Shown piece by piece: positions 6,589 through 53,191 of a stretch of 64,000 bases of DNA. The notes beneath the pieces were generated by a model. The model had not been told where the DNA came from. It saw only the letters and a program-made list of their open reading frames with translations, and ran no database searches. The translations under genes and the position numbers were made by a program. Source of the DNA: Chloroflexota bacterium. Its GTDB lineage: Bacteria; Chloroflexota; Limnocylindria; Limnocylindrales; CSP1-4. The DNA is taken from contig CAKKPP010000012.1 in assembly GCA_919901745.1 (NCBI GenBank), forward strand, positions 23,457-87,456, given 5' to 3'. The number at the start of each line of letters is the position of its first letter. Within the stretch, counting starts at the first letter, position 1.

Positions 6589-6665
6589 GGGCGATTAGCT
6601 CAGCCGGTCAGAGCGCACGGTTCACATCCGTGAGGTCACTGGTTCGAACCCAGTATCGCCCACCA
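6589..6665 (+). tRNA. tRNA-Val (anticodon CAC)
   Basis: Manual cloverleaf fold of GGGCGAT-TA-GCTC/GAGC D-arm, anticodon stem CACGG/CCGTG with loop TTCACAT, T-arm ACTGG-TTCGAAC-CCAGT, discriminator A and encoded CCA. Confidence 0.9.
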
Positions 6666-6965
6666 CCGTCCCAGTCCCCGTAACCGAACGCCATGGTCGG
6701 GCGTCTTCTGTTCACTCGCGCGCTCGGCGCGATGAACGAGAAGGATGGTGTCTCCGATGATCGGCTGGTGGAAGACGGTCTCCAGCCTGTTCGAGCGGCT
6801 TCGCGAGGACCGGGACATCGCTCGCCGGCTTCAGACGTACGTTGGACCGCGATCTCCGCACGACCGACTCGGCTCCCTGCGCCTGGCCGGAACCCGGGGG
6901 CCGAGCCTTCGCCGGTGGTGAGCTGAGCCCGCTCGCGATGAACGCTCCGGGTCGGTGACGGGGTC

Positions 6966-34382: not shown

Positions 34383-36107
34383 TCAGGGAGCCGGAGTCGC
34401 CGGACTGGGGCTCGGGGTGGGGTGGGTTGGCGGTGGCTGGGGCGGGGCCTGTGGCGCATTGGGCTGGGGGGACGGTTCGGGCGGGATTGTCGGCTCGGCG
34501 GTGGGCGCTGGCGGGATTGTCGGCTCGGCGGTCGGCGGTGCGGGCGTTGGCGGGGCGGTTGGCTCGGCGGGCGGCTCGGCGGTCGGCGCCGGTGCGGGCG
34601 GCGGCGGTGCGGGCGGCGGCGGTGCGGGCGGCGGCGGTGCGGGCGCGAGGCAATTGCCGACGCCCGACCCACCACCCCTGGTCGCCGACGGGGGAACCGC
34701 GAATTCGGCGGCCGGCAGGGTTCCCGACGGGGGAAAGAGCTTCGCGGCCAGCGCCCTGATTCCGGCGACGTCCGGGACCTGGATCGATCCTCGGGCGTCG
34801 AACCTGGAATGGACGAGCGGCGTACTGATCACGGCCCGGTACGTGCGCGATCGGTCGACCCGCGCCATTGCGTCGGCCAGGTCCGGCAGCTGCTCACGAG
34901 CGACGTTCGTCTGGAGCGATCGCCCGACGGCCTGGAGGAGTGCGATCGGGTCACTCACGAAGCCGCGCTGCACGACGGCATCGCGCAGCCCGCTGATGAT
35001 CTCCTGCTGTCGGGCCGCCCGCGTGAAGTCGGATTCGCCCGATGCCTGCCGAATTCGCGCGTAGGCCAGCGCCTGGTATCCGCTCAGGTGGCGCAGGCCG
35101 GCTGCGATCGAGAAGCCGCGACTGAAGCCGTATTCGTCGTAGCCCGGATCGCACAGCGAGCGCGACACCGAGACGTCGACCCCGCCGAGGACGTCGACCA
35201 CCCGGACGAAGCCGCCGAGGCTCACCGCGGCATAGCTGTCGATCCGGAGGCCGAGGAGCGTTCCGACGGCGGCCATCAGGACGTCGTGGCCGGATCCATC
35301 GGAGCCCGGGAAGCGCGACGGATGATGACGTGCATCGGCGTCGAGCCCGTTCAACTTGGGCGCGTACCGGCTGCCATCGGGCAGCGGGACGTCGACGATG
35401 TCGCGTGGGATGGAGACCATCGAGACCGTTTCGCTGACCGGGTCCAGGCTGGCGACGATCATCGTGTCGGTGGCCGCAGTCGACCGCCCGGCACCGCTGT
35501 CGATCCCGATCAGGAGGACGTTGACCCGGGGGCGCAGAGGCAGCGCCGCCGTCCGCGAGAGGCTGGGCGAGGGGCTCGTGGTCGCCGCCCCCGTCGAAGC
35601 CGAGGGCAGGACCGTTGGTGGTGGGCCGAGCGGTTGCCACGCTCCGCTCGTCTCGCCGCTGAAGACGCGGTCCACCTCCTCGCGGGCGACGTTGGTCACG
35701 TAGCCCAGGTAGGCCTGAGGACCCACGACCAGGGCAATGAGCGCCGCCGCGCCGAGGGCCTGGGCTCTCGGGCGCCGGCCGAGCCATGCGGCCCGCAACC
35801 CGGACGTGACGGCCAGCAGGCGCCACACGAGGACGATGGCCTGGACCACGAGGAGGACCGCCAGCGCGTTGACCGCCTCGGCGGCGAGGCGCGCCGGCGC
35901 GTTCGCGGCGACGATGACCCCGAGCACGCCAAGCACCACGAGGGTGGGGGCGCTGAACAGGATCGCGAGGCGGCGGCGTCCGGCAACGAGATGTCCCATC
36001 CCGGGTACGACGGCGTCGAGTGCCGCCCACCGGAGCTGCCGGGATCGCACGGACGTCGCGGGTCCGCGCCGCGCGGTCGCCTCGGGCGCGTCGTCGGGGA
36101 TGGTCAT
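34383..36107 (-). CDS. LytR-CpsA-Psr (LCP) family cell-envelope phosphotransferase with Pro/Ala-rich C-terminal tail
   Basis: ATG at 36107 (track ORF to 36218). TM helix followed by the LCP core VNVLLIGIDSGAGRSTAATDTMIVASLDP...VSIPRD. The C-terminal ~110 aa are PPPPAPPPPAPPPPAP...TAEPTIPP repeats. Confidence 0.75.
   Translation of the reverse strand: MTIPDDAPEATARRGPATSVRSRQLRWAALDAVVPGMGHLVAGRRRLAILFSAPTLVVLGVLGVIVAANAPARLAAEAVNALAVLLVVQAIVLVWRLLAVTSGLRAAWLGRRPRAQALGAAALIALVVGPQAYLGYVTNVAREEVDRVFSGETSGAWQPLGPPPTVLPSASTGAATTSPSPSLSRTAALPLRPRVNVLLIGIDSGAGRSTAATDTMIVASLDPVSETVSMVSIPRDIVDVPLPDGSRYAPKLNGLDADARHHPSRFPGSDGSGHDVLMAAVGTLLGLRIDSYAAVSLGGFVRVVDVLGGVDVSVSRSLCDPGYDEYGFSRGFSIAAGLRHLSGYQALAYARIRQASGESDFTRAARQQEIISGLRDAVVQRGFVSDPIALLQAVGRSLQTNVAREQLPDLADAMARVDRSRTYRAVISTPLVHSRFDARGSIQVPDVAGIRALAAKLFPPSGTLPAAEFAVPPSATRGGGSGVGNCLAPAPPPPAPPPPAPPPPAPAPTAEPPAEPTAPPTPAPPTAEPTIPPAPTAEPTIPPEPSPQPNAPQAPPQPPPTHPTPSPSPATPAP
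34481..34540. repeat. 30-nt tandem direct repeat x2 inside the LCP gene
   Basis: gcgggattgtcggctcggcggtgggcgctg and gcgggattgtcggctcggcggtcggcggtg, encoding TAEPTIPPAP x2 on the minus strand. Confidence 0.8.
34591..34650. repeat. 15-nt tandem repeat x~4 inside the LCP gene
   Basis: ggtgcgggcggcggc repeated, encoding (PPPPA)n. Confidence 0.8.
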
Positions 36108-36280
36108 GGACACGCCGGCCAGCGTACCAGCGGGCTGGGATCGGGGTGCCGGCCCCGGCGAGCGGGCGTGGCGGGCTCGGCGGTCGGCGAGGCCGGCGGT
36201 GCTGGCGGGCACCCCCATCGTACGAGGGCCTGCTTATCGCGCACGTATCGTCGCCTTCATCGCGGCGCCCCGAAACGATG

Positions 36281-37927
<1,647 letters not shown>

Positions 37928-38240
37928 AGGTCAGCGCTGCCCCTCAGCCTGCGCAGGCCGAGGCCCGGGATCGAGGACCGACACGGCGGCCGGATCCCGG
38001 TCCGGACTGGTATACTCCCGCCGCCCCCAGGACGCACCGCCGGGTGGTCGGGGCAGGAGGATGAGCGATCGCGCATCGACGGCGCGTCGGACGTCCCGTG
38101 AGGCGTGCGAGCGACCAGCCTGACTCAACCCGTCGGCACGCCGACAGGGTGACGCGGGAGAAGTCTATCCGGGTCCCAGGTCCCTCGACCGGGGGCCTTT
38201 TCGTTTGTCCGCATCCGGCGGCCGCAGGGTCTCGCGGCTG

Positions 38241-39551
38241 ATGCCGGCCACGGTCATCGTCGGCCTCCAGTGGGGCGACGAGGGGAAGGGCAAGACGACC
38301 GACTTCCTTGCGGAGCAGGTCGCCATGGTCGTCCGCTACCAGGGTGGCGACAATGCCGGCCACACCGTGGTCACCGGCGACGAAGTGTTCAAGCTCCATC
38401 TGGTGCCATCGGGCGTCCTGTACCGTCACATCACCTCCGTGATCGGCAACGGCGTGGTGGTCAACCCGGCGACGCTGATCAGCGAGCTGGACATGCTGGC
38501 CGGTCGCGGCATCGACGTGGCGCGGGTCAGGGTGAGCCGCAGCGCCCACGTGACGATGCCGTATCACGTCGCGCTCGACCGGGCGATGGAGCGGCGGCTC
38601 GACGGCGCCAAGGTCGGGACCACCGGACGGGGAATCGGTCCGACCTACGGCGACCGGGCATGGCGGATCGGCCTGCGCATGGAGGATCTGCTGGACGAAG
38701 CCGTTCTCCGCGAGCGAATCGGCCGGGCGCTGCCCGACAAGAACCAACTGCTCGCGTCGCTTGGTGAAGCGGCGTTCGAGCTCGACCGGCTCGTCGATCT
38801 GGGGTTGGGTTGGGGCCAACGGCTTCGACCACACCTCGACGACACCACGTGGCTCGTCCAGGACGCATTGCGTCGGGGGGATCACGTCCTGCTCGAAGGG
38901 GCGCAGGGAACCCTGCTCGATCTCGATCACGGCAGCTATCCCTACGTCACGTCCTCGAATCCGGTGGCCGGAGGCGCGTGCACCGGCGGTGGGATCGGAC
39001 CGCTCCAGGTCGATGAAGTCATGGGCGTCATGAAGGCGTATGCCACCCGGGTTGGGTCCGGGCCGTTCCCGACCGAGCTGCTCGACGAGATCGGCAGGGG
39101 AATCGCCGCGCGCGGCCACGAAGTCGGCACGACGACGGGCCGACCGCGCCGCGTCGGCTGGTTCGACGCGGTACCGCTGCGCTATGCCGTCGCCGTCAAC
39201 AGCGTCAGCAGCATCATGCTCAACAAGATCGACATCCTGTCGGGGCTCGATCCCATCCGCCTGTGTGTCGCGTACGACATCGATGGCCGCCGGGTCGAGC
39301 ACTGGCCGTCGAGCGCCATCGAGCTGGCGCGGGCCCAGCCGGTCTTCGAGGAGTTCGCGGGCTGGTCCGAACCCATCCACGGTGTCCGCTCGCTGGCCGA
39401 CCTTCCCGAGAACGCCCGCCGCTACGTCACGGCGCTCGAGGATCATGCCGGAGTCCCGATTGTCCTCGTGTCCGTCGGGCCCGAGCGCACGCAGACCATC
39501 GAGCGCGCCTGGCGCCCGATGCGGCACCGGCCGGCTGCCCCGCTGGCATGA
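38241..39551 (+). CDS. purA: adenylosuccinate synthetase
   Basis: ATG at 38241 (track gives TTG at 38205). VIVGLQWGDEGKGKTTD P-loop. Confidence 0.93.
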   Translation: MPATVIVGLQWGDEGKGKTTDFLAEQVAMVVRYQGGDNAGHTVVTGDEVFKLHLVPSGVLYRHITSVIGNGVVVNPATLISELDMLAGRGIDVARVRVSRSAHVTMPYHVALDRAMERRLDGAKVGTTGRGIGPTYGDRAWRIGLRMEDLLDEAVLRERIGRALPDKNQLLASLGEAAFELDRLVDLGLGWGQRLRPHLDDTTWLVQDALRRGDHVLLEGAQGTLLDLDHGSYPYVTSSNPVAGGACTGGGIGPLQVDEVMGVMKAYATRVGSGPFPTELLDEIGRGIAARGHEVGTTTGRPRRVGWFDAVPLRYAVAVNSVSSIMLNKIDILSGLDPIRLCVAYDIDGRRVEHWPSSAIELARAQPVFEEFAGWSEPIHGVRSLADLPENARRYVTALEDHAGVPIVLVSVGPERTQTIERAWRPMRHRPAAPLA

Positions 39552-39564
39552 ACGCGGAACGCGC

Positions 39565-40929
39565 ATGACGCCCACCCGGATCCTGGTCGTCGGCGGCGGT
39601 GGCCGGGAACATGCGCTGGCCTGGAAGCTCGCCGGCGAGCCCGGTGTCAACACGATCCACGTGGCACCGGGCAGTGCGGCCATCGCGTTGGAGCCACGTG
39701 TGCAGACGCATCCCGAGGTTGCGGCGCTCGATGCCCGCGGTCTCGTCCGACTCGCTCGGCAGCTGGCAATCGAGCTCGCCGTCATCGGACCCGAGGCACC
39801 GCTGGCCGCCGGCGTCGCCGACGCCCTGCGGACCGCCGGGATCCCCACGTTCGGCCCATCCGCGGCGGCCGCCCGGATCGAGGCGTCGAAGGCGTTCTGC
39901 CGCGACGTGGCGGCGGCGGCCGGGGTCCCGATGGCCGAGGGGCGCGCGTTCTCCGACCCGGCGCCGGCCGTCGCCTATGCCCGCGGGCTGGCTGCCCGGA
40001 TGGATGGAACGGCCGGTGTTGTCGTCAAGGCGGACGGCCTTGCTGCCGGCAAGGGCGTGACGGTTTGTGCGGGCGCCGACGAAGCGGAGGCCGAGCTGAC
40101 GGCGATCTTCGGAGCCGGCGCCGAACAGGCGCCGGGTAGCGCGCGCGTCGTCGTCGAGGAGCGCCTCGTGGGCCCGGAGGCCAGCCTGATCGCCCTGTGC
40201 GATGGTCGCGTCGCCATCGGTCTGCCCCCCGCCCGCGACCACAAGCGCCTCCTGGACGACGACGAGGGACCCAACACCGGCGGCATGGGCGCCTACAGCC
40301 CGCTGCCGGACCTCTCGACCGAGCGGGCGACCGTTCTGCTCGACACGGTGCATCGCCGGATCCTCGGAGAGCTGGAGCGGCGCGGGGCGCGCTTCGTCGG
40401 TGCCCTGTATGCGGGAATGATCCTCACCGCGGATGGGCCGCGCCTGCTCGAGTGCAACGCTCGATTCGGCGATCCCGAGACACAGGTGATCCTCCCGCGC
40501 CTCGGGCTGGCCCTGGCGCCGCTCCTGCTGGCCGCCGCGCGCGGCGAACTCGGCCGGACGGCCGCCGGTCTCGGGCTGCTGGACCCGATCGTGCAGACGG
40601 TCGATCGCGCGGCGGTGGGAATCGTCCTGGCCGCCGCCGGCTATCCGGCCGCCCCGCGCCGGGACGACGCCATCATGGGCCTCGACACGATCGGCGACGA
40701 CGCCTTGGTCTTCCATTCGGGCAGCGTGCTCGCATCCGACGGCCGTTTCGCCACGGCCGGTGGGCGCGTCCTCACGATCGTCGGTCGTGGCGTGGACCTC
40801 GCGGACGCACGCGCTCGCGCCGAAGCGGCGGCCGACCGGATCTCCTTCGCCGGGCTCCAGAGGCGCAGGGATATCGCGGCGAACCTGCCGGGCGCATCTC
40901 CGGCGCCGACGCTGGCAGCCATCGGATGA
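39565..40929 (+). CDS. purD: phosphoribosylamine--glycine ligase
   Basis: MTPTRILVVGGGGREHALAWKLA with the ATP-grasp body. Confidence 0.9.
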   Translation: MTPTRILVVGGGGREHALAWKLAGEPGVNTIHVAPGSAAIALEPRVQTHPEVAALDARGLVRLARQLAIELAVIGPEAPLAAGVADALRTAGIPTFGPSAAAARIEASKAFCRDVAAAAGVPMAEGRAFSDPAPAVAYARGLAARMDGTAGVVVKADGLAAGKGVTVCAGADEAEAELTAIFGAGAEQAPGSARVVVEERLVGPEASLIALCDGRVAIGLPPARDHKRLLDDDEGPNTGGMGAYSPLPDLSTERATVLLDTVHRRILGELERRGARFVGALYAGMILTADGPRLLECNARFGDPETQVILPRLGLALAPLLLAAARGELGRTAAGLGLLDPIVQTVDRAAVGIVLAAAGYPAAPRRDDAIMGLDTIGDDALVFHSGSVLASDGRFATAGGRVLTIVGRGVDLADARARAEAAADRISFAGLQRRRDIAANLPGASPAPTLAAIG

Positions 40930-42248
40930 TCCGACGCTACACGCTCCCCGAGATGGGGGCCGTCTGGACGGACGAGAGGCGGTTCGGTCACATGCTCCGG
41001 GTCGAGATCGCGGTCGCCCGCGCCCAGGTCGCCCGCGGAACCGTCCCGGCGGAGGCCATTGTCGCGATCCAGCGCGACGCCCGCGTGGACGTCGATCGGA
41101 TCGCCGAGATCGAACGAACCACGGACCACGACGTGATTGCGTTCGTGAGCCAGGTCGCCGAGTCGGTCGGGCCCGAAGGTCGCTACCTCCATCTCGGCCT
41201 CACGAGCAGTGACGTCGTCGATACCGCCCTGGCTCTCCAGCTCCGGGAAGCGGGGAACCTCCTGCTCAGGGGCACGGATCGGCTGATCGTTGCCCTCGTG
41301 GCGCGAGCACGGGCCGAGGCCGACACCGTGATGATGGGTCGGACCCATTCCGTCCACGCAGAGCCGACGACGTTCGGCCTGAAGCTGGCCGGCTGGGCGT
41401 TCGAGGTGGATCGCGGCCGAGCCCGCCTGGCCACGGCGGTCGACGAGATGGCGACCGGCAAGATCTCGGGCCCGGTGGGCACGTACAGCCATCTCGATCC
41501 CGATCTTGAGGCGGAAGTTCTCGCCGAGCTCGAGTTGAAGGTCGACCCGGTCAGTACCCAGATCGTCCAGCGCGACCGGCATGCGGCGTTTCTCGCCGCC
41601 ATCGCCATCCTCGGCGGGAGCCTGGAACGGTTCGCGACCGAGGTTCGCAACCTTCAGCACACGGAGATCGGCGAGGTTCAGGAGCCGTTCCGGGCCGGCC
41701 AGAAGGGCTCGTCGGCGATGCCGCACAAGCGCAACCCGATTGTCTCCGAGCGGATCGCCGGCCTCGCGCGGCTCCTCCGCGGCTATGCCCAGACGGCCTT
41801 CGAGAACCAGCCCCTGTGGCATGAGCGTGACATCAGCCACTCCTCGGCCGAGCGGGTGATCCTGCCCGACGCGACGATCCTCCTCGACTACATGCTGGTC
41901 CGAATGACGACCCTGATCGAGGGGTTGATCGTCCGGCCCGAGCGAATGCGCGAGAACATCGAGCGCGGCCTCGGCCTGCATGCCTCGAGCCGCGTTCTCG
42001 TGGCCCTCGTCGAAGAGGCCGGCTTGTCGCGCGAGGACGCGTATGCCGTCGTCCAGCGGGCCGCACTGCTGGCGGCCGACCAGCGTCGCCCCCTGCGCGA
42101 CCTCGTGGCGATCGACCCGGCGGTGGCCCCGCAGCTGTCCCTCGAGCGCCTCGATGCGTGCTTCGACGACGCCGCAACGCTGCGCCACGCGGGGACGGTG
42201 ATCGCGAGGCTCGACAGCCTGAGCCCGGGGAGTGAGGCGCCGCGATGA
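40926..42248 (+). CDS. purB: adenylosuccinate lyase
   Basis: ATGA overlap with purD. Fumarate-lyase signature GSSAMPHKRNP. Confidence 0.93.
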   Translation: MIRRYTLPEMGAVWTDERRFGHMLRVEIAVARAQVARGTVPAEAIVAIQRDARVDVDRIAEIERTTDHDVIAFVSQVAESVGPEGRYLHLGLTSSDVVDTALALQLREAGNLLLRGTDRLIVALVARARAEADTVMMGRTHSVHAEPTTFGLKLAGWAFEVDRGRARLATAVDEMATGKISGPVGTYSHLDPDLEAEVLAELELKVDPVSTQIVQRDRHAAFLAAIAILGGSLERFATEVRNLQHTEIGEVQEPFRAGQKGSSAMPHKRNPIVSERIAGLARLLRGYAQTAFENQPLWHERDISHSSAERVILPDATILLDYMLVRMTTLIEGLIVRPERMRENIERGLGLHASSRVLVALVEEAGLSREDAYAVVQRAALLAADQRRPLRDLVAIDPAVAPQLSLERLDACFDDAATLRHAGTVIARLDSLSPGSEAPR

Positions 42249-43156
42249 CCGCGGCCACCTGGGTCCGCTCCGGCAAGGTTCGCGACCTGTATCGCGTGGA
42301 CGACGATCGCCTGCTGCTGGTCGCCTCCGATCGGCTCTCGGCGTTCGATGTCGTCCTGCCCACGTCGATCCCGGACAAGGGCCGCATCCTGACCGGCCTG
42401 TCGCGGTTCTGGTTCGATGAAACCCGGCACATCGTGGCGAATCACCTGCTCGACGTCGATCCCGGGTCCGTCCCGCGCGGCACCGTCGAGGAGGACCGGG
42501 AGGCGGACCTGCGCGGCCGGATGATGCTCGTCCGCCGCGCGGACGTCCTGCCGGTCGAGGTCGTGGTTCGCGGCTATCTCGCCGGGTCGGGCTGGAAGGA
42601 TTACCTGGCGACGGGCGTTACGAGCGGCCACCGCCTGCCGGCCGGGATGGTTGAAGGCGACCGCCTGCCCGAACCGATCCTGGCGCCGGCGACCAAGGCG
42701 GCGCCGGGCGAGCACGATGAGAACATCGATCTCGATGCGATGATCGACCTCGTCGGTGGAGAGCTCACCGAACGGGTGCGTGGCATCGCCCTGGAGCTGT
42801 ACCGCCACGGGGCGGCAGCGTGCGAGCGGGCGGGAATCCTCCTCGCCGACACGAAGTTCGAGTTCGGGACGCACCCGGCGACGGGCGAGTTGCTGCTCGT
42901 CGACGAGGTCCTCACGCCGGACTCGTCGAGGTTCTGGGACGCCGCCGCCTATCGCGCGGGCGGCCCCCAGCCGAGCTTCGACAAGCAGTTCGTGCGTGAT
43001 TGGCTCGAGACCCTCGACTGGGACAAGACATCGCCCGGTCCGACGCTCCCGGCGGCCGTCGTCTCCGGGACGCGCGCCCGCTACGTGGAGGCCTATGAGC
43101 GAATCACCGGGGCGAGCTTCGCCCGCTACCTCGAGGAGGACGTCGTCGCCGCATGA
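42245..43156 (+). CDS. purC: SAICAR synthetase
   Basis: 303-aa protein; GKVRDLY ... LLLVASDRLSAFD. Confidence 0.9.
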   Translation: MTAATWVRSGKVRDLYRVDDDRLLLVASDRLSAFDVVLPTSIPDKGRILTGLSRFWFDETRHIVANHLLDVDPGSVPRGTVEEDREADLRGRMMLVRRADVLPVEVVVRGYLAGSGWKDYLATGVTSGHRLPAGMVEGDRLPEPILAPATKAAPGEHDENIDLDAMIDLVGGELTERVRGIALELYRHGAAACERAGILLADTKFEFGTHPATGELLLVDEVLTPDSSRFWDAAAYRAGGPQPSFDKQFVRDWLETLDWDKTSPGPTLPAAVVSGTRARYVEAYERITGASFARYLEEDVVAA

Positions 43157-43443
43157 GCACCCATCGATTTGCCGTCAACGTGACCCCGAAGCCGGGCATC
43201 CTCGATCCCCAGGGCCGGGCCGTGGAGGGGAGCCTCGGACACCTTGGGATCGAGGGCGTGAGCGCCGTACGCGTGGGCCGACGGGTCGAGCTGACGGTCG
43301 CGGCCGTCGATGCGGCCGCCGCGCGGGCGGTCGTCGAGCGATTGGCCGCGGAACTCCTGGCCAACCCGCTCATCGAGGCGTACGTGGTCGAGGAGATCGC
43401 CGGCGCATCCTCGACGCTGAGCATCGGGGCCGGGGAGGGCTGA
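43153..43443 (+). CDS. purS: FGAM synthase PurS subunit
   Basis: 96-aa protein; [25 protein letters not shown]. Confidence 0.9.
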
Positions 43444-43444
43444 C

Positions 43445-44227
43445 GTGCCGGCACGGATCGGGGTGGTGGTCTTCCCGGGCTCCAATTGCGACCGCGACAC
43501 CATGTATGCGCTGTCCCTGGCCGGCGCCGAACCGGTCGAACTGTGGCACGAGCAGGCGTCGCTCGACGCGATCGATGGGGTCATCCTGCCGGGGGGCTTC
43601 GCCTACGGCGACTACCTGCGCGCCGGTGTGATTGCCCGGTTCTCACCCGTCGTGCGCGCCGTGACCGCGTTCGCCGATCGGGGCGGCCTGGTCCTGGGGA
43701 TCTGCAACGGGTTCCAGGTCCTGGCCGAGGCCGGACTCGTTCCTGGGGCGCTCCTGCGGAACCGCGGCCTGCGTTTCCTCGGGCGCGACGTCCACATCGC
43801 CGCGGAGCGCGTGGACACGCCGTTCACCGCCGGCCTGATCGCGGGGCGACCGCTCCGGATGCCGATCGCCCACGGCGAGGGCTGTTATTTCGCCGACGAC
43901 GCGACGCTCGACGAGCTCGAGCGTGACGGGCAGGTCCTGTTTCGCTACGTGGGTGGCGACGGCGCGGCGGTCGGCGCCGACGATGGGGCACGCCACCCCG
44001 ACAACCCGAACGGGAGCCTGCGGGCGATTGCCGGCGTACTGAACACGGCGGGCAACGTCGCCGGTCTGATGCCGCATCCGGAGCGTGCGGCCGAGGGGCT
44101 GCTCGGATCCGACGACGGCGCCGGCATCATTCGCTCGTTCGTGGCGGCCGCAGCGGGGCGAGCGTCCGGTCGCGTGGCGGACCCCAACGTCGCCGCAGCA
44201 GGCGTCGGCGCCGGGAGCGGGCGCTGA
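43445..44227 (+). CDS. purQ: FGAM synthase glutaminase subunit
   Basis: GTG start. Class-I GATase GICNGFQ catalytic Cys, with His and Glu later. Confidence 0.9.
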
Positions 44228-44229
44228 CA

Positions 44230-46581
44230 ATGCCGGTCACCCTCACCGCGGCCTCCGCCGCGGTGACCTCCGCCGCCGTGCCGCTCCATCGGGCCCTCGG
44301 GCTCACCGACGACGAGCTCGACGCGATTCGCGATCGCCTCGGCCGAGATCCGAATCATCTCGAGCTGGCGATCTTCAGCGTGATGTGGAGCGAACATTGC
44401 TCGTACAAGAGCTCGAAGCCGCTCCTGCGCACGCTCCCGACCCAGGGCGAGGGTGTCGTCGCCGGACCCGGCGAAAATGCCGGCGTGATCTCGATCGGTG
44501 ACGGGCTGGCCGTCGCGTTCAAGATCGAATCGCACAACCATCCCAGTGCGGTCGAGCCATACCAGGGCGCGGCGACCGGTGTCGGCGGCATCCTTCGGGA
44601 CATCTTCACGATGGGGGCGCGGCCCATCGCCGTCCTCGATGCCCTCCGGTTCGGCGATCCGGGAGATGTCCGGACACGCCACCTCGTCGATGGCGTCGTT
44701 CGCGGGGTCGGCGGCTACGGCAACTGCGTCGGCGTCCCGACGGTGGGCGGGGAGCTTGTCTTCGACCCCTCATACCAGGGCAATCCGCTCGTCAACGTGA
44801 TGGCCATCGGTCTCCTGGACGAGCGTCGGCTCACGCTCGCCGCCGCTCCCGGCCCGGGCAATCTCGTCATCCTGTTCGGATCGACGACCGGCCGCGATGG
44901 GATCGGGGGTGCATCGGTCCTCGCCTCTTCGACGTTCACGCACGACGACCCCTCGAAGCGCCCATCCGTCCAGGTGGGCGACCCGTTTGCCGAAAAGCTG
45001 CTCATCGAAGCCTCGCTCGAACTCATCGAGCGGGAGCTCGTCGAAGGGCTCCAGGACCTCGGAGCCGGCGGGATCAGCTGTGCTACCTCGGAGACGGCCG
45101 ATCGAGCCGGGACCGGAATGCTCATCGACCTCGATGCGGTGCCTCGTCGAGAGCCGGACATGGCCGCCTACGAGGTGATGATCTCGGAGTCGCAGGAGCG
45201 GATGCTGGCGGTTGTCCGACCGGACCGCGAAGCCGCGGTACGGGAGGTGTGCGCGCGCTGGGGCCTGCCCTGCGCGGTCATCGGCCGGGTGACCGCGGAT
45301 GGCGACATCGCGATCGTGGAGGGCGGGCTGGACGACAGCGGCGCGGCAGCGGCCGGCGCGCGAGAGCTCGCTCGCATCCCCGCCGCCGCCCTCACCTCGG
45401 ACGCCATCGTCCACGACCGAATCGGCGCGGCGCCGGTCCACGCACGGGCCGCACCGGCCCCCGGTATCCCTGAATGGCCCAGCGATGGTCTGCCCGAGCG
45501 CGGCATGGACCCCGGCGCAGTGCTCCTCGCCCTCCTGGGTTCGCCGAATCTCGCGTCCCGTCGCCCGGTCTTCGAGCAGTACGACTCGACCGTCCAGGTC
45601 AACACCGTGGCCGGGCCCGGGCGCGGCGCGGCGGTGCTGCGCGTGAAGGGAACGACCAAGGCACTCGTGGCAACCACCGACGCCAACGCCCCGGTGAGCG
45701 GCATCGATCCATGGCTCGGAGCCGCGCTGAGCGTGGCCGAGGCCTCGCGCAACGTGTCGATCACGGGCGCGCGACCGCTCGGCGTGACGAACTGCCTCAA
45801 CTTCGGCGATCCGACACGACCCGAGGCCTTCTGGCAGCTGTCCGAGGCCGTGCGCGGCCTGGGAGATGCCTGCCGTGCCCTGGGCCTGCCGGTCACCGGC
45901 GGCAACGTGTCGCTGTACAACGAATCCGCCTCCGGCGCGATCCTGCCGACGCCCGAAATTGGGGTCGTCGGAATCCTCGACGACATCGCGACCCTCATCG
46001 GCCCGGCGTTCGTCGAGGCGGGCGATAGCGTGGTGCTGGTCGGCGAGGCTGTTCCCGGGCTCGCCGGGAGCGAGTACGCCCGCCTCGCCGGGGCGGCGCC
46101 CGGCGATGGACCACCGGTCCTCGACCTCGAGCGCGAGGCGGCGCTCCAGAGGTTCATCCGCGAGGCCGTCGCGGGCGGGCTTGCCGCGTCGGCGCAGGAC
46201 GTGTCCGGTGGCGGTCTTGCCGTCGCCCTGGCCGAGGCCGCGATGTGGGGCGGGATCGGCGGCCGGCTGCGGATTCCCGTCGCCAGCTCCCCGGCCGCCG
46301 ACCTCTTCGGCGAGAGTCCCAGCCGGATCGTGGTCACGTGCCGGCCGCGCCGGCTGGAGGCGCTGGTGCTCCTCGCGCGGCAGCACGGCCTGCCGGTCGA
46401 CGAACTGGGCGTCGCGGGCGGCGATCGATTGCTGATCGATCTGGGGAACGGCGGTGCGACCGGTCCGGCAGAAGGCCGGGGCTCCCACGTCGCAGACGCC
46501 CTGGACGTCTCGCTCGCCGACCTGGAGCACGCATGGTCGCGCGGTCTCGGGCGCGCCCTTGGCTGGGACGAGGTGGACTGA
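44230..46581 (+). CDS. purL: FGAM synthase II
   Basis: 783-aa protein; [20 protein letters not shown]. Confidence 0.95.
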
Positions 46582-46583
46582 CG

Positions 46584-48053
46584 ATGTGCGGCGTCTTCGG
46601 GGCCTCGGTTCCTCCCGGATCGGAGGTCAGCGCGGCGGCCGTCGCGGCGCTCGGGTTGTTCGCGCTGCAACACCGGGGCCAGGAATCGGCCGGTGTCGCG
46701 GTGTCCGACGGGAGCCAGCTGATGGTCTACAAGGATCTCGGCATGATCAGCTCGGTGCTGGATGAACGCCGGCTGCCCAGCCTCCGCGGCGATCTGGCGA
46801 TTGCCCACTGCCGCTACTCGACGACCGGCTCGACGGTCTGGGAGAACGCCCAGCCCACGTTCCGCCTGGGCCCACGACGCGCCCTCGCGGTGGGCCACAA
46901 CGGGAACCTCGTGAACACGCGGGAGCTGCTCGATCAACTGCCGGGTGGTCGCGCCCGGCTCCCGGCGAGCACGGACACGGAACTCCTGACCGCGTTGCTT
47001 GCCGACGAGGAGGCCGGCGATCTCGTCGAGGCCCTCCTGCGGGTCCTGCCGCGCGTGCGCGGTGCCTTCAGCCTGGTCGTTCTCGATGAGCGACGGATCG
47101 TCGGCGTCCGTGACCCGCACGGGTTCCGGCCGCTCGTGTTGGGGCGCATCCCGGCTTCGAGCGAACGACCGGCCACGCAGCAGGCCGGCGGCCTGTGGGA
47201 GGACGACGCGGCACGCGACACGTGGGTGCTGTCGTCGGAGACGACGGCCCTCGACATTGTCGGCGCGGACTTCGTGCGCGACGTCGAGCCGGGAGAGCTG
47301 GTGATCCTCGAGGCCGGCATGACCCCGCGATCGGTCCGCTACGCGACGGCCGATCCGGCGCTGTGCGTCTTCGAGCTCATCTACTTCGCGCGGCCCGACT
47401 CGTACATGGAGGGGCGCAACCTCTACGAAGTCCGCCGGCGCATGGGGATGCAGCTGGCCGCCGAACATCCGGTTGAGACCGACCTGGTCATGCCCGTTCC
47501 CGATACCGGCGCTCCGGCCGCGGCCGGTTACGCGGAGGCGTCGGGCATCCCGTATCGCGAGGGCCTCGTCCGCAACCGGTACACCGGGCGCTCGTTCATC
47601 CAGCCATCCGAGACGCTGCGTCACCGGGGCGTGACGATGAAGCTCAACCCGCTGCGTGAAGTGGTTCGCGACAAGCGCCTGACCGTGGTCGACGATTCGA
47701 TCGTGCGCGGGACGACGACCAAGCAGATCGTGGCCCTGCTCAGGAAGGCCGGCGCCGCGGAGGTCCATGTCCGGATCAGCGCCCCGCCCATCTTCCATCC
47801 CTGCTTCTACGGCATCGATACGCAGGTTTCGACAGAACTCATCGCGTCCAGGCTTTCGCCCGAGGAGATCTGCGAATTCATCGGCGCGGATTCGCTCGGC
47901 TATCTCTCGATTCCCGGTGTCCTCGCCGCGCTGGAGCTGCCGTACGAGCAGTTCTGCTTCGCGTGCTTCGATGGGCGCTATCCGGAACCCGTCCCGTACG
48001 ATGTGGCGAGCCGCAAGTTCCTCCTCGAGGAGCCCGTCGCCAGCCGTGGCTGA
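46584..48053 (+). CDS. purF: amidophosphoribosyltransferase
   Basis: ATG at 46584 yields the N-terminal MCGVFG (Ntn Cys1), followed by a PRTase domain. Confidence 0.93.
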   Translation: MCGVFGASVPPGSEVSAAAVAALGLFALQHRGQESAGVAVSDGSQLMVYKDLGMISSVLDERRLPSLRGDLAIAHCRYSTTGSTVWENAQPTFRLGPRRALAVGHNGNLVNTRELLDQLPGGRARLPASTDTELLTALLADEEAGDLVEALLRVLPRVRGAFSLVVLDERRIVGVRDPHGFRPLVLGRIPASSERPATQQAGGLWEDDAARDTWVLSSETTALDIVGADFVRDVEPGELVILEAGMTPRSVRYATADPALCVFELIYFARPDSYMEGRNLYEVRRRMGMQLAAEHPVETDLVMPVPDTGAPAAAGYAEASGIPYREGLVRNRYTGRSFIQPSETLRHRGVTMKLNPLREVVRDKRLTVVDDSIVRGTTTKQIVALLRKAGAAEVHVRISAPPIFHPCFYGIDTQVSTELIASRLSPEEICEFIGADSLGYLSIPGVLAALELPYEQFCFACFDGRYPEPVPYDVASRKFLLEEPVASRG

Positions 48054-49209
48054 CGGTCCAGGATCCAGGGGCCGACCGGGTCGAGCCGGCCGGGACGCCT
48101 ACGTCGCCTCCGGGGTGGACGTTGCGGCCGGCGAGCGTGCGGTGGAGCTGATGCGCGCCGCGGTCGAATCGACCCATCGGCCGGAAGTCGTCGGGAGCCT
48201 GGGCGGCTTTGGCGGCGCGGTGGCCGTTCCTGCCGGGTATCGCGAACCGCTGATCGTCGCCTCGACCGACGGCGTCGGCACGAAGACGGCGATCGCGAGC
48301 GCGCTCGGCCGGTTCGACACGATCGGGATCGATCTCGTGGCGATGTGCGCCGACGATGTCGTGTGCAGCGGTGCTGAGCCGCTGTCCTTCGTCGACTACG
48401 TGGCCGTCGGCAGGCTGGACCCGGACGTCGTCGCCACGCTGGTGGCCGGGGTAGCCGAGGGTTGCCGGCAGGCCGGTTGCGCGCTTGTCGGCGGCGAGAC
48501 GGCCGAACACCCCGGGCTGATGGCCCCGGACGCATTCGACCTCGCGGGCACGTGCATCGGGGTGGTCGAGCGGGAACGCCTGATCGACGCGACGGCACCG
48601 CGCGGTGGCGACACGATCCTCGGCCTGGCGTCATCGGGCCTGCATGCGAACGGGTTCTCGCTGGTTCGGGCGCTCCTGGCTCGTTGGGACGTGAACCTGG
48701 GCGAGCCGTACCAGGAACGCCTCCGGCGCACGCTCGGCGACGAGCCCGCTGATCGCGCGATGACGGTGGAGCCCGAGCACGCCCTGGCAACGATCGGCGA
48801 CGTGCTGCTGACGCCGACGAGGATCTACGCTCGGGCCGTCCTGGGGCTCCGGGCCGCCCTCGAGGAGGCCGGCCACGAGCTGCGGGGCGTCGCCCACGTC
48901 ACCGGGGGCGGTCTTCCCGGCAACGTCGCCCGGATGCTCCCTCCCTCCCTGGGGGCCAGGCTCGACCCGTCACGCTGGCCGATTCCGTCGGTCATGCGCC
49001 TGTTCGGCGCCCTCGGCGGACTGGACGACGCTGAACTTCGAGCCACGTTCAACGGGGGGATCGGGATGGCGATCGCGGTGGCTCCGGCGGCGGCCGACGT
49101 GGCCTCCGCCTGGCTGGCAGCTGCGGGCGTAGCCGCGCACCAGATCGGTCTCGTGGTCGACATCGGTCAGCCGGGCGGCGAGCGCTACACCGAGGGCCGC
49201 ATCGAATGA
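48046..49209 (+). CDS. purM: phosphoribosylformylglycinamidine cyclo-ligase (AIR synthetase)
   Basis: The only in-frame start before the conserved YVASGVDVAAGE is GTG at 48046, overlapping the purF stop by 8 nt. PurM core ASTDGVGTK is present. Confidence 0.8.
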   Translation: MADGPGSRGRPGRAGRDAYVASGVDVAAGERAVELMRAAVESTHRPEVVGSLGGFGGAVAVPAGYREPLIVASTDGVGTKTAIASALGRFDTIGIDLVAMCADDVVCSGAEPLSFVDYVAVGRLDPDVVATLVAGVAEGCRQAGCALVGGETAEHPGLMAPDAFDLAGTCIGVVERERLIDATAPRGGDTILGLASSGLHANGFSLVRALLARWDVNLGEPYQERLRRTLGDEPADRAMTVEPEHALATIGDVLLTPTRIYARAVLGLRAALEEAGHELRGVAHVTGGGLPGNVARMLPPSLGARLDPSRWPIPSVMRLFGALGGLDDAELRATFNGGIGMAIAVAPAAADVASAWLAAAGVAAHQIGLVVDIGQPGGERYTEGRIE

Positions 49210-51443
49210 GCGACGGCCGTCGAATCGCCGTGGGCGTGTCGGGCGCTGGGTCCAACCTCCGCGCACTTGGTGCCGCCGCAGCACGTGACGAGATCGGCGG
49301 ACGCATCGTCCTGGTATTCGCCGACCGACCGTGCCCGGCGCTCGACTGGGCGGCCGAGCAGGGGATCGAGACGGCGCTCATCCCCGGCGGGAACGACGAC
49401 GCGCTGGCCGAGACCCTCCTGGCCGTGGCGCCCGATGCCGTCGTCCTGGCCGGTTACCTCCGGATCGTCGGCGCGCGCGTGCTCGGGGCGTTCGGTGGCC
49501 GGATCCTCAACACGCATCCGTCGCTCTTGCCGGCATTCCCGGGCGCGCACGCGGTGCGCGACGCGCTGGCTCACGGCGTGGCCGTGACGGGCTGCACCGT
49601 GCACCTGGTGGACGACACGCTCGATGGCGGGCCGATCGTCGCCCAGGAGGCGGTTCCGATCCTCGCCGGTGACGACGAGGCGTCCCTGCACGAGCGAATC
49701 CGGGCGGTGGAGCACCGCCTCCTGCCGCGGGCCACGGCGCTCCTGCTCGCCGGCGCCCTGTCCGTGATCGGCCGGCATGTCGTCGTCGACGCGGCGACGG
49801 CCGATGGCGGACTCCCCGTTCCGCGCCGCGCACTGCTCTCGGTCAGCGACAAGGCCGGGCTCGCGGATCTCGCCGGTGGGCTCGTCGCACGCGGTTTCGA
49901 GCTGGTGTCCACCGGAGGCACCGCCGCCGCGCTTCGAGAGGCGGGCATGCTCGTGACCGACGTGGCCGCGGTGACGGGCTTCCCCGAGATGCTCGACGGG
50001 CGCGTCAAGACACTCCATCCGCGCATCCACGCGGGAATCCTCGCCGACAGGCGATCGAGCGCACACCGGGCGGCCCTCATGGCTGCGGCGATCGCTCCGT
50101 TCGAGCTCGTCGTCGTCAACCTCTATCCGTTCGGCGCCGCCGCCGAGCGGCCGGGGATCGCCCTGGACGAGCTGATCGAGGAGATCGATATCGGCGGCCC
50201 GGCCCTGATCCGCGCCGCCGCGAAGAACCAGGCCAGCGTCGCGATCGTGACCTCGCCGGCCCGTTATGCGCACGTTCTCACCGTCCTCGCGGAGGAGGGG
50301 AGCGTGCCGGCCGGACTGCGGGCTGCCCTGGCGATCGAGGCGTTTCGCCACACGGCTGCCTACGACGCGCGGATCGCAGCGGAGCTGCCCTGCCACCTCC
50401 ACGAAGCCGGGTTGACCCTTCCGGACGAGCCGGGGCTGCCCACGTCCTCCGATCCCTTCCCGCAGAGCCTGACGATCGAACTCGAGAAGGTCGAGACGCT
50501 TCGCTACGGCGAGAACCCGCACCAGCGGGCTGCGCGCTATCGACGGCCGGGCCGAGCCGGCGGCGCAGGACCCTTCGCATCCTTCGACCCGCCGCTCCAG
50601 GGCAAGGCGCTCAGCTACAACAACGTGCTCGACGCGTCGGCGGCGGCGGCGCTTGCGCGGACACTGCGTGGCCCGGCCGCGGTGATCGTCAAGCACATGA
50701 ACCCGTGTGGCGCGGCCCAGCGTCCGACGCTCGCCGCGGCCTGGGGCGCAGCGCTCGCCGGCGACCCGGTCTCCGCGTTCGGTGGCGTGGTTGCGCTCAC
50801 CCGCACGGTCGACGGCGAGGTGGCGCGAGCGCTCGTCGCCATCTTCCTCGAGGTGGTGGTGGCACCGGCGTTCGACGACGACGCGCTGGGGGTCCTGGCC
50901 GCCAAACCAAACCTCCGGCTCATTGTCGACCCGGATGTCGCCCTGGACAGCGCACCCGGATGGCCCGAGCGGACGGCGTCAATCCGAACGGCCGGGGGCG
51001 CGGTCCTCGTGTCGACGCCGGATACCGTCGAGGACGATCCGAGCGGGTGGATGACCGTCACCAGCCGCGAGCCGACAGACCGCGAGCGCGCCGACCTCCA
51101 TCTCGCGTGGCGGCTCGTCCGCGGGGTCACCTCGAACGCCATCGTCCTCGTCTGCGACGGGGCGCTCATCGGGCTCGGATCAGGCCAGACGAGCCGTGTC
51201 GACGCGGCGCGCCAGGCCGTGGCCAAGGCCCGATCGATCGCCGGCGACGACGCCCTCCGCGGTGCGGTCTGCGCATCGGACGCGTTCTTTCCGTTCCCGG
51301 ATGCCGTCGAAGCCTGCCTGGACGCCGGCGTGACCGCGTTCGTCCATCCCGGTGGCTCCCTGAACGACGCAAAGGTGACCGTGGTCGCGAACGCCGCCGG
51401 CGCTGCAGTGCTCGTAACGGGTACGAGGCACTTCCGGCACTGA
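49206..51443 (+). CDS. purNH: fused phosphoribosylglycinamide formyltransferase / AICAR transformylase-IMP cyclohydrolase (PurN-PurH)
   Basis: Single uninterrupted 745-aa ORF. Residues 1-~200 are PurN (RIAVGVSGAGSNL ... NTHPSLLPAFPG). From ~205 it is PurH (RALLSVSDKAGL ... RVKTLHPRIHAGIL ... full AICARFT/IMPCH). ATGA overlap with purM. Confidence 0.8.
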   Translation: MSDGRRIAVGVSGAGSNLRALGAAAARDEIGGRIVLVFADRPCPALDWAAEQGIETALIPGGNDDALAETLLAVAPDAVVLAGYLRIVGARVLGAFGGRILNTHPSLLPAFPGAHAVRDALAHGVAVTGCTVHLVDDTLDGGPIVAQEAVPILAGDDEASLHERIRAVEHRLLPRATALLLAGALSVIGRHVVVDAATADGGLPVPRRALLSVSDKAGLADLAGGLVARGFELVSTGGTAAALREAGMLVTDVAAVTGFPEMLDGRVKTLHPRIHAGILADRRSSAHRAALMAAAIAPFELVVVNLYPFGAAAERPGIALDELIEEIDIGGPALIRAAAKNQASVAIVTSPARYAHVLTVLAEEGSVPAGLRAALAIEAFRHTAAYDARIAAELPCHLHEAGLTLPDEPGLPTSSDPFPQSLTIELEKVETLRYGENPHQRAARYRRPGRAGGAGPFASFDPPLQGKALSYNNVLDASAAAALARTLRGPAAVIVKHMNPCGAAQRPTLAAAWGAALAGDPVSAFGGVVALTRTVDGEVARALVAIFLEVVVAPAFDDDALGVLAAKPNLRLIVDPDVALDSAPGWPERTASIRTAGGAVLVSTPDTVEDDPSGWMTVTSREPTDRERADLHLAWRLVRGVTSNAIVLVCDGALIGLGSGQTSRVDAARQAVAKARSIAGDDALRGAVCASDAFFPFPDAVEACLDAGVTAFVHPGGSLNDAKVTVVANAAGAAVLVTGTRHFRH

Positions 51444-51553
51444 GGCCCCGTCCAGGAGTGCCTGGTCCCGTCGCGGCGCCCCACGGTCGGGGCCCGATGC
51501 CGACCACTGCCCGATGCCGACCACCCGGGCCCGCCTGCTACCATCGATCTCCC

Positions 51554-53191
51554 ATGCCCGACCGCCATCGTTATTACCTGACCACCGCGATCGCCTACGC
51601 CAACAATCGACCGGGGTTGCACACCCTGTACGAGGTGGTCGGCGCCGACGTGCTGGCCCGCTGGCACCGGATGAAGGGCGACGACACGCGGTTCCTGACC
51701 GGCACGGACGAGTACTCCGTGAACATCGCGATGACCGCCGCCGAGCAGGGCAAGGAACCCAGGGCGTTCGTCGACGAGATGGTGGCGCTGTTCGGTGATG
51801 CGGAGGACGCCCTCGGAATCTCGCCCGATCGGTTCATCCGCACGACCGACCCCGACCACGAGCGGGCCGTCCACGAGGTCATTCGGCGGTGTTACGCCAA
51901 CGGCGACCTCTACCTCGGGACGTACGAGGGCTGGTACTGCCCCAACGAGGGATTCCGGGCCAGGAGCGACCTGATCGAGGACGCGTCGGGCTTCCATTGC
52001 CCCAACCACCCTGGCGTCGAACTGCAGTGGCTCAGCGAGACCAACTGGTTCTTCCGCCTCTCGAAGTACCAGGCCGCGCTCGAGCGGCATTTTGCGGAGC
52101 ACCCGGACTGGGTGCAGCCCGAGTTTCGCAAGAACGAAATGCTCGGTTTCATCCGGGGCGGGCTCGAGGACTTCAGCGCCAGCCGCCAGAACGCGACCTG
52201 GGGCATCCCGTTCCCGATCCTGCCCGACGGGACGTGGGCCCAACGCGAGGACGGATCGTGGCATCCGGGGGCGGGGACGGTCTACGTCTGGTTCGACGCC
52301 CTGATCAACTACATCACCGGCGCGGGCTTCCCCGACGACCCGAAGGCGTTCGCTCACTGGTGGCCCGCCGACCTGCACGTGATCGGCAAGGACATCAACC
52401 GCCTCCACACGGTCATGTGGCCGGCGATGCTCATGAGTGCCCAGATCCCGCTGCCGCGCAAGGTCTGGGTGCACGGCTGGCTGCTCGTCCAGGGCGAGCG
52501 GATGAGCAAGAGCCGCGGGAACTTCCTGGACCCGCACGCGGTGGTTGCCGCCCTCGGCACGGACGGCGCGCGCTACGTGATGCTCCGCGAAGTCGCCTTC
52601 GACCGTGACACCGATGTGTCCTGGGAGTCCTTCGTGCGGCGCTACAACGCCGACCTCGCCAACGACTTCGGGAACCTCGTCAACCGAACCGTCTCGATGA
52701 CCAACCGGTACCTCGACGGACGGCGGCCCGCCCCACGAGTGCACGACGAATCGCCCCTCGGCGAAGGCTGGCACGACACGCTGAACCGGTTCGTGGAGCG
52801 ACTGGAAGGCCATCTGCTCCACGACGCTCTCGCCGAGCTCATGGAGTTTGTGTCCGGCGCGAACAAGGTCGTCGACGCGGAGCAGCCGTGGGTCCTCGCC
52901 AAGGCGGCGAAGGCCGGTGACCGCGAGGCCGAGGCGCGCCTGGAGGCCGTCCTCGGCGACCTGGTCGAGGCCTGCCGGCTGGTGGGCCTTGCGGCCGCTC
53001 CGTTCCTGCCCAACACGGCACCGCGCGTGATGTTGCAGCTGGGCTTCGGGTTTGGCTACGCCCCGGACGGGAACGGCGGGCCCGCGATCCTCGACGAGCT
53101 CCGCTGGGGCGCCCACGCCGCCACGGCCGGCCATGTCGGGCAGCCCGAGCCCCTGTTTCCGCGTCTCGACATCGAGCCGCCGCCGGGCTGA
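51554..53191 (+). CDS. metG: methionyl-tRNA synthetase (short form, no C-terminal tRNA-binding domain)
   Basis: ATG at 51554. KMSKS present as RMSKS. The HIGH region reads AYANNRPGLHTLY, which is non-canonical. CPN..CPN knuckle. Confidence 0.85.
   Translation: MPDRHRYYLTTAIAYANNRPGLHTLYEVVGADVLARWHRMKGDDTRFLTGTDEYSVNIAMTAAEQGKEPRAFVDEMVALFGDAEDALGISPDRFIRTTDPDHERAVHEVIRRCYANGDLYLGTYEGWYCPNEGFRARSDLIEDASGFHCPNHPGVELQWLSETNWFFRLSKYQAALERHFAEHPDWVQPEFRKNEMLGFIRGGLEDFSASRQNATWGIPFPILPDGTWAQREDGSWHPGAGTVYVWFDALINYITGAGFPDDPKAFAHWWPADLHVIGKDINRLHTVMWPAMLMSAQIPLPRKVWVHGWLLVQGERMSKSRGNFLDPHAVVAALGTDGARYVMLREVAFDRDTDVSWESFVRRYNADLANDFGNLVNRTVSMTNRYLDGRRPAPRVHDESPLGEGWHDTLNRFVERLEGHLLHDALAELMEFVSGANKVVDAEQPWVLAKAAKAGDREAEARLEAVLGDLVEACRLVGLAAAPFLPNTAPRVMLQLGFGFGYAPDGNGGPAILDELRWGAHAATAGHVGQPEPLFPRLDIEPPPG

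Follow-up and report, generated by a model that had tools for sequence, protein, structure and literature searches.

The stretch of DNA analysed here, referred to as the window, comprises 64,000 nucleotides (nt) of a Chloroflexota bacterium (GenBank assembly GCA_919901745.1, contig CAKKPP010000012.1, positions 23,457 to 87,456 of the forward strand) and carries a cluster of purine biosynthesis (pur) genes. In the last pur gene of this cluster, located at 49206-51443 on the plus strand, purN reads directly into purH. The gene is a single open reading frame (ORF) of 745 amino acids (aa) that starts with ATG and, according to the ORF listing, contains no in-frame stop codon. A first-pass annotation, made from the nucleotide letters, had already described this ORF as a complete PurN running stop-free into a complete PurH, and both peptide strings that it quoted were indeed found in the translation. 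Its description was confirmed by Pfam, NCBIfam and PDB alignments. Pfam placed three domains on the protein, namely Formyl_trans_N (aa 6-177), MGS (219-332) and AICARFT_IMPCHas (338-674). The NCBIfam equivalog for PurN, TIGR00639, scored 180.1 bits against a cut-off of 150.1, with aa 6-183 matching positions 2-187 of the 192 in the model. Both PurH equivalogs matched aa 207-745, which span the models from position 1 or 6 to position 510 or 511. Here NF002049 scored 613.7 bits (cut-off 402) and TIGR00355 529.2 bits, barely above its cut-off of 528. Furthermore, Mycobacterium tuberculosis PurN (3da8) aligned with aa 5-193, other PurN chains in the PDB extended to aa 199-205, and M. tuberculosis PurH (3zzm), starting at its own residue 3, aligned with aa 198-745 (E 1e-124). 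Since the equivalog and PDB alignments cover each part from end to end, we conclude that both the PurN and the PurH part are full length.

From these alignments the join was mapped to approximately aa 195-207 (nt ~49790-49826), in agreement with the first-pass estimate of ~49780-49830, and the true linker between the C-terminus of PurN and the N-terminus of PurH is at most about 5 residues long. The tryptic peptide that spans the junction is HVVVDAATADGGLPVPR. In an AlphaFold2 (AF2) monomer model, based on an alignment of 59 clade sequences, the mean predicted local distance difference test (pLDDT) score was 79.9, while the junction (aa 181-220) was modelled at pLDDT 87-90 as the C-terminal beta-hairpin of PurN (185-194), a short helix (196-202) and the first strand of PurH (208-213).

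A frameshift or a lost stop codon at the purN/purH boundary, introduced by sequencing or assembly, could have merged two separate genes, and purN and purH are indeed adjacent but separate in most bacteria that cluster them. Moreover, frameshifts do occur in metagenome assemblies with a GC content of 70%, such as at the PurH C-terminus of one relative (L004) and in a representative-library entry (P0129). However, the contig carrying the window, which stems from a Hainich groundwater metagenome (ENA ERZ1292628) and is also represented at NCBI (MEK6720330.1), was matched by an independently assembled Logan contig from run SRR32696707. The two were identical at 6727 of the 6727 bases compared, the junction included, so that the check for an indel that the first-pass annotation had proposed turned out in favour of the fusion. 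Its proposed check of orthologs had the same outcome: the best 120 hits in a collection of 5.8 billion proteins, which originate from NCBI, JGI, ENA and Logan and thus from unrelated samples and assemblers, all combined PF00551, PF02142 and PF01808 in proteins of 739-766 aa with 73-100% identity. The fusion was also present on contigs of megabase (Mb) scale, the largest measuring 2.3 Mb. Homologs were aligned in sets of 23 and 59 sequences, and six DNA sequences were compared at the codon level. In both protein alignments the amino-acid sequence across the join was conserved, with the consensus ...LLAGAL.V..GR.V..D..RAD..P.PRRALLSVSDK..., and all junction length differences among the six DNA sequences were whole codons. 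The Nei-Gojobori ratio of the proportions of nonsynonymous and synonymous differences (pN/pS) amounted to 0.32 in the PurN core and 0.36 in PurH, compared with 0.56 in the junction (aa 176-212), at a pS of ~0.5. Together, the whole-codon indels and these ratios show that the frame was kept over a long divergence and that the junction is relaxed, though not neutral. An assembly artefact is thus effectively refuted, and we regard it as scarcely conceivable.

The fusion might also be nominal, if PurH were additionally or mainly translated from an internal start near the end of purN, so that one ORF would yield two proteins. Some 20 codons upstream of the PurH core, at aa 187 (nt 49764), there is an in-frame GTG. 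Likewise, a divergent relative (L084) has an in-frame ATG five codons upstream of the RRALL motif, and a stand-alone PurH works in two other relatives (L088 and P0123). Nevertheless, the GTG codon of the window is replaced by ATC, GTC, GTC, GCC and CTG in five relatives, and across aa 176-212 none of the in-frame start codons was conserved among the six DNA sequences. In addition, no purine-rich sequence resembling a Shine-Dalgarno site was found ahead of the GTG, where the upstream 18 nt read CTCGCCGGCGCCCTGTCC. As there is no stop codon, the full-length fusion would be made even if internal initiation took place. For these reasons we hold translation from an internal start to be very improbable. 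We also considered the GTGA at 49764-49767 as a relic of a former stop/start overlap, and rejected it; purN is read there in frame 0, whereas that TGA belongs to a different frame, and relatives do not share the codon.

At the PurN site, N102 and H104 (motif NTHPSLLP) and D140 (LDGGP) were invariant in the 59 clade sequences as well as in the 23-sequence set, which includes independent fusions. We take these residues to be the counterparts of the catalytic triad Asn106/His108/Asp144 of Escherichia coli PurN. The IMP cyclohydrolase (IMPCH) site, which in human ATIC numbering comprises K66, Y104, D125 and K137, was represented by K268, Y307, D328 and K340; these aligned with K67, Y105, D126 and K138 of avian ATIC (1g8m). 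For the transformylase acting on aminoimidazole carboxamide ribonucleotide (AICAR), abbreviated AICARFT, the Lys-His dyad (K266/H267 in human ATIC) corresponded to K496-H497, which aligned with the KH of 7mgq. All residues of these two sites were invariant in the clade. Judged by these residues, three active sites are intact on one polypeptide.

This conservation bears on a further alternative, in which the N-terminal domain would be a degenerate remnant or some other formyltransferase rather than a working glycinamide ribonucleotide (GAR) transformylase, and the protein would be a PurH with an appendage. In line with that idea, the NCBI pipeline names the product only 'bifunctional PurH', and the fold is common to PurU, Fmt and ArnA, which give weaker matches. 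Yet TIGR00639 scored above its curated cut-off, whereas the models for PurU, Fmt and ArnA remained far below theirs. The Asn-x-His motif and the Asp are invariant, and the domain, with its pN/pS of 0.32, is constrained like PurH. Lastly, the operon covers all other steps from purF to purH except those of purE and purK, and it contains no second enzyme for step 3. A dead or different formyltransferase therefore appears most improbable. Taken together, the artefact, the internal start and the dead formyltransferase all fit the evidence poorly.

The closest species representatives in GTDB, 'Chloroflexota bacterium' L003 (70% identity) and 'Chloroflexi bacterium CSP1-4' L004 (67%), were both fused, which again agreed with the ortholog check; we take CSP1-4 to be a member of the class Ellin6529/Limnocylindria in GTDB. 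A stop codon still separates purN from purH in about 30 other taxa in which the two genes are neighbours, among them Bacillus and its relatives, Clostridia, Streptomyces, Corynebacterium and Demequina. Among the GTDB species representatives of most Proteobacteria, Acidobacteria and Dehalococcoidia, purN did not adjoin purH. The first-pass statement that the arrangement is not standard in bacteria is hence well founded, as the ~30 taxa with adjacent genes retain the stop. Rows from Bacillus, Streptomyces and Clostridia in which residues 6-745 were matched had been candidates for further fusions and were rejected, since a stop-to-stop test identified them as adjacent, separate genes. The fusion is conserved and fixed across an uncultured Chloroflexota lineage that includes 'CSP1-4'.

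Several representative-library entries of the clade (P0129, P0128, P0131 and similar ones) result from gene calls that are cut short or shifted in frame; P0129, for instance, gives the C-terminal end of PurN in the wrong frame ahead of ...GRTVTLDALRADVGTPRPRRALLSVSDK. A naive census of fused versus unfused genes would therefore overcount the unfused state. The L004 protein (L004:~7900-8193, LDXM01000017) differs from its relatives in the last ~90 residues, which read …GVRGPDEPR…LRSILHR as opposed to …GSGQTSRVDAA…TRHFRH. This divergence seems to stem from a frameshift introduced during assembly.

Several observations nevertheless count against a fixed, single-chain enzyme. A metagenome scan with P0123 yielded the contigs L086-L089; the contig of P0123 itself was not recovered. 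One of them, L088, carries a stand-alone purH (L088:385-2031) with its own ATG, the product of which begins with MLRALLSVSDK. It is followed by metG (L088:2220-3887) and preceded, in place of purN, by a stop-rich stretch of ~380 nt with a lower GC content (59-65%). The L088 PurH is 84% identical to that of the fused L089, and the two were sisters in 100% of the bootstraps, nested within the fused clade. The unfused P0123 paired with the fused L087 at 78% bootstrap. A stand-alone purH in L088 means that the covalent linkage is dispensable. Next, constraint on the junction is weaker than that on the catalytic cores, as judged by pN/pS. The predicted template modelling score of the AF2 model was only 0.53, and the relative placement of the domains was not reliably modelled. 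Finally, a second purN or a purT may be present outside the 64-kilobase (kb) window. L088 looks like a case of secondary fission or rearrangement inside the fused clade, judging from its position in the tree, although its contig is possibly chimeric. Fusion thus appears to be the ancestral state in the clade, reversed at least once. Weighing all this, we consider it very probable that the gene is a genuine, lineage-fixed purN-purH fusion encoding one trifunctional polypeptide, the enzymatic activities of which are predicted from its sequence.

The fused gene is the final pur gene of a 13.2-kb cluster (38205-51443), the members of which are listed in Table 1. The first-pass annotation had proposed a 13-kb operon in which every junction is a stop-start overlap. 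While the cluster itself was verified, overlaps were found at only 5 of the 9 junctions: ATGA at purD>purB, purB>purC, purC>purS and purM>purN/H, and 8 nt at purF>purM. The remaining junctions are gaps of 1-2 nt (purS>purQ, purQ>purL and purL>purF) or 13 nt (purA>purD). The fused gene had also been proposed to end the operon. It is the last pur gene, but the operon may extend beyond it, because metG follows 110 nt downstream and no terminator-like site was found in that 110-nt gap. Accordingly, metG may be co-transcribed with the pur cluster. The order purA-D-B-C-S-Q-L-F-M-N/H, with the fused gene in last position, was also found in the divergent relatives L083, L084 and L085 on contigs of 0.9-2.3 Mb, and the synteny of purH and metG was shared by L083, L085 and L088.

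Table 1. Positions of the fused gene, its parts and the surrounding genes in the window.
Feature	Position (nt)	Strand	Basis
purA	38205-39551	+	NCBIfam equivalog
purD	39565-40929	+	NCBIfam equivalog
purB	40926-42248	+	NCBIfam equivalog
purC	42245-43156	+	NCBIfam equivalog
purS	43153-43443	+	NCBIfam equivalog
purQ	43445-44227	+	NCBIfam equivalog
purL	44230-46581	+	NCBIfam equivalog
purF	46584-48053	+	NCBIfam equivalog
purM	48046-49209	+	NCBIfam equivalog
ATGA stop/start overlap between purM and the fused gene	49206-49209	+	context GAATGAGC
Fused purN-purH gene; predicted trifunctional GAR transformylase / IMP cyclohydrolase / AICAR transformylase	49206-51443	+	single ORF; three Pfam domains; PurN and PurH NCBIfam equivalogs; identical independent assembly
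PurN (GAR transformylase) domain, aa 6-199, with C-terminal beta-hairpin aa 185-194	49221-49802	+	TIGR00639; PDB PurN chains up to aa 193-205; invariant N102/H104/D140; AF2 secondary structure
Junction segment, aa 185-207, LSVIGRHVVVDAATADGGLPVPR: PurN end, short predicted helix 196-202, first PurH residues	49758-49826	+	alignments; whole-codon indels; pN/pS 0.56; pLDDT 87-90
IMP cyclohydrolase (MGS-like) domain of PurH, aa 207-391	49824-50378	+	Pfam MGS; alignment with residues 7-191 of avian ATIC
AICAR transformylase domain of PurH, aa ~422-745, and stop codon	50469-51443	+	Pfam AICARFT_IMPCHas; PDB 1zcz aligns to 419-745; K496-H497 dyad
metG (methionyl-tRNA synthetase), 110 nt downstream of the fused gene	51554-53191	+	Pfam tRNA-synt_1g

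Neither purE nor purK is present in the pur cluster, and both must be located in another part of the genome. Within the window, purN and purH occur only once. An Rfam scan revealed neither a purine riboswitch nor any other regulatory RNA in the vicinity of the pur cluster, and a sigma-70 promoter scan returned no match; the sole match above the Rfam gathering threshold in the window was a tRNA gene (6589-6662, plus strand). At the 5' edge of the cluster, directly upstream of purA, lies a terminator-like hairpin, AGGTCCCTCGACCGGGGGCCT followed by TTTCGTTTGT (38178-38208, plus strand). Because this hairpin overlaps the mechanically assigned TTG start of purA (38205) and the match of the PurA hidden Markov model begins at residue 13, the true purA start is probably located slightly downstream of 38205. 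Further upstream, two ORFs on the plus strand (36020-36910, 296 aa, and 37373-38101, 242 aa) had no Pfam match, and the shorter one had no NCBIfam match; both are overlapped by an ORF of 548 aa on the minus strand (36281-37927), and either strand may be the coding one here. Long ORFs of 503-876 aa also run antisense to or overlap the pur genes and metG, at 49185-50696, 50615-53134 and 45168-47798 on the minus strand and at 46245-48053 on the plus strand, the last being an N-terminally over-extended, 602-aa version of purF. These long ORFs are spurious, as is typical of DNA with ~70% GC, and do not represent genes.

Fusions of the same kind were also detected outside the clade. PurN and PurH are fused in a metagenome-assembled genome of the Elusimicrobiales (L012) and in an uncultured bacterium (L020), and among 1.84 billion representatives clustered at 50% identity, complete PurN-PurH fusions accounted for 18 of the best 150 hits, with identities of 38-71%. 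In a rough neighbour-joining tree, the deep nodes of which were poorly resolved, the PurH moieties of fused proteins were scattered among unfused PurH sequences, and the linkers of the independent fusions, with ~3-60 residues between landmarks, were unrelated in both sequence and length. The scattered tree positions and the unrelated linkers argue for several independent fusions. This indicates that the PurN-PurH fusion arose repeatedly in bacteria, a reading drawn from a tree that does not give the exact number of events. Such recurrence, in the Chloroflexota clade, in further bacterial lineages and, with PurN joined to AICARFT, in haloarchaea, could be taken as a 'Rosetta-stone' signal, meaning that in prokaryotes at large the two transformylases form one physical unit and share or channel folate as the minimal core of a bacterial purinosome. 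We judge this to be rather unlikely. If it were true, the short structured connector of the Chloroflexota clade would keep the two folate sites in a defined spatial relation.

Compared with separate bacterial enzymes, such as those of M. tuberculosis (3da8 and 3zzm) and of the Bacillus-type purM-purN-purH arrangement, the two halves described here are full-length orthologs and the gene order is alike. In contrast, the separate proteins measure ~210 and ~520 aa, while here they form one chain of 745 aa with no stop and essentially no linker. The independent bacterial fusions (L012 with P0135, L020 with P0160, ~18 representatives) display the same order, PurN-IMPCH-AICARFT, but are only 38-51% identical to the present protein, and their linkers are unrelated to its own. 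In eukaryotes, GART (GARS-AIRS-GARTfase) and ATIC are likewise multi-enzyme polypeptides of purine synthesis, and ATIC is the equivalent of PurH with the same catalytic residues. However, the PurN-type domain of GART is joined to PurD and PurM instead of PurH. The contact between GART and ATIC, which are distinct proteins, is purely non-covalent, in the purinosome.

The nearest described counterpart is the PurNH of haloarchaea, which consists of PurN and the AICAR transformylase 'PurH1' only, the cyclohydrolase being supplied by PurO (PMC3261824). An example is OE1620R of Halobacterium salinarum (PMC3579733). In that organism, PurNH was reported to bind the chemotaxis kinase CheA stably, an unexplained case of moonlighting (PMC3579733). 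The archaeal and the bacterial protein are alike in that both transformylases of the pathway that depend on 10-formyl-tetrahydrofolate (10-formyl-THF) reside on one polypeptide. Unlike the archaeal protein, which is devoid of an MGS/IMPCH domain, the bacterial protein contains a full-length PurH (IMPCH and AICARFT) with an intact IMPCH domain at aa 207-391, and we therefore regard it as an analogue rather than a member of the haloarchaeal family. The PurH phylogeny suggests that the Chloroflexota fusion is independent of haloarchaeal PurNH, the haloarchaeal form being compared by its description. The first-pass proposal of a genuine fusion that unites both 10-formyl-THF-dependent transformylations on one chain thus stands, with the qualification that the architecture recurs elsewhere and that haloarchaea have a partial equivalent.

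In an interaction map of E. coli, PurN and PurH are peripheral in the purine-enzyme cluster and a direct complex between them is not reported (PMC12583656). A survey of the last two pathway steps in prokaryotes lists purN as a frequent neighbour of purH-type genes and describes no purN-purH fusion (PMC6486802). Within the literature searched, we found no paper describing a bacterial fusion of PurN with a full-length PurH, and only the haloarchaeal fusion turned up. Public annotation at NCBI labels the fused proteins just 'bifunctional ... PurH'. The bacterial form is under-annotated and, in that literature, apparently undescribed. The genes that it joins are neighbours with related functions in one pathway, and an archaeal analogue is known, which makes it a modest variation on known enzyme fusions and not a new type of system.

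The genuine fusion probably arose when purN lost its stop codon and came to read straight into purH, with which the compact purine operon closes. A small indel at the stop/start junction was probably sufficient in an operon of overlapping or abutting genes, and the extreme compactness of the cluster would have made fusion by such a tiny indel easy. In the resulting protein, the PurN domain would convert GAR to formyl-GAR (step 3), the AICAR transformylase domain AICAR to formyl-AICAR (FAICAR; step 9), and the IMP cyclohydrolase domain would close the ring of FAICAR to yield inosine monophosphate (IMP; step 10), steps 3 and 9 both consuming 10-formyl-THF. Members of the PurH family are homodimers in which the AICARFT site lies between the two subunits. 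Because all characterised PurH/ATIC enzymes dimerise, the fusion, by analogy, probably dimerises through its PurH part, and each dimer would bear two PurN domains, attached by a short structured connector. The likely benefit would be an obligatory 1:1 co-production and co-localisation of the two folate-dependent enzymes of the pathway, which might extend to sharing or channelling of the cofactor. Alternatively, the fusion may have been a near-neutral event that was subsequently retained, being tolerated as a by-product of operon compaction.

Provided that a single chain is produced, one trifunctional enzyme would carry out steps 3, 9 and 10 of the purine pathway in this clade. The clade would then offer a natural experiment on whether covalent coupling aids stoichiometry, cofactor sharing or the formation of a metabolon, for which the secondary fission in a close relative would serve as a ready-made control. 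Since the fused proteins are labelled as PurH only, purN can be wrongly reported as missing in pathway reconstructions, a miscall that affects abundant uncultured Chloroflexota as well as the other fused lineages.

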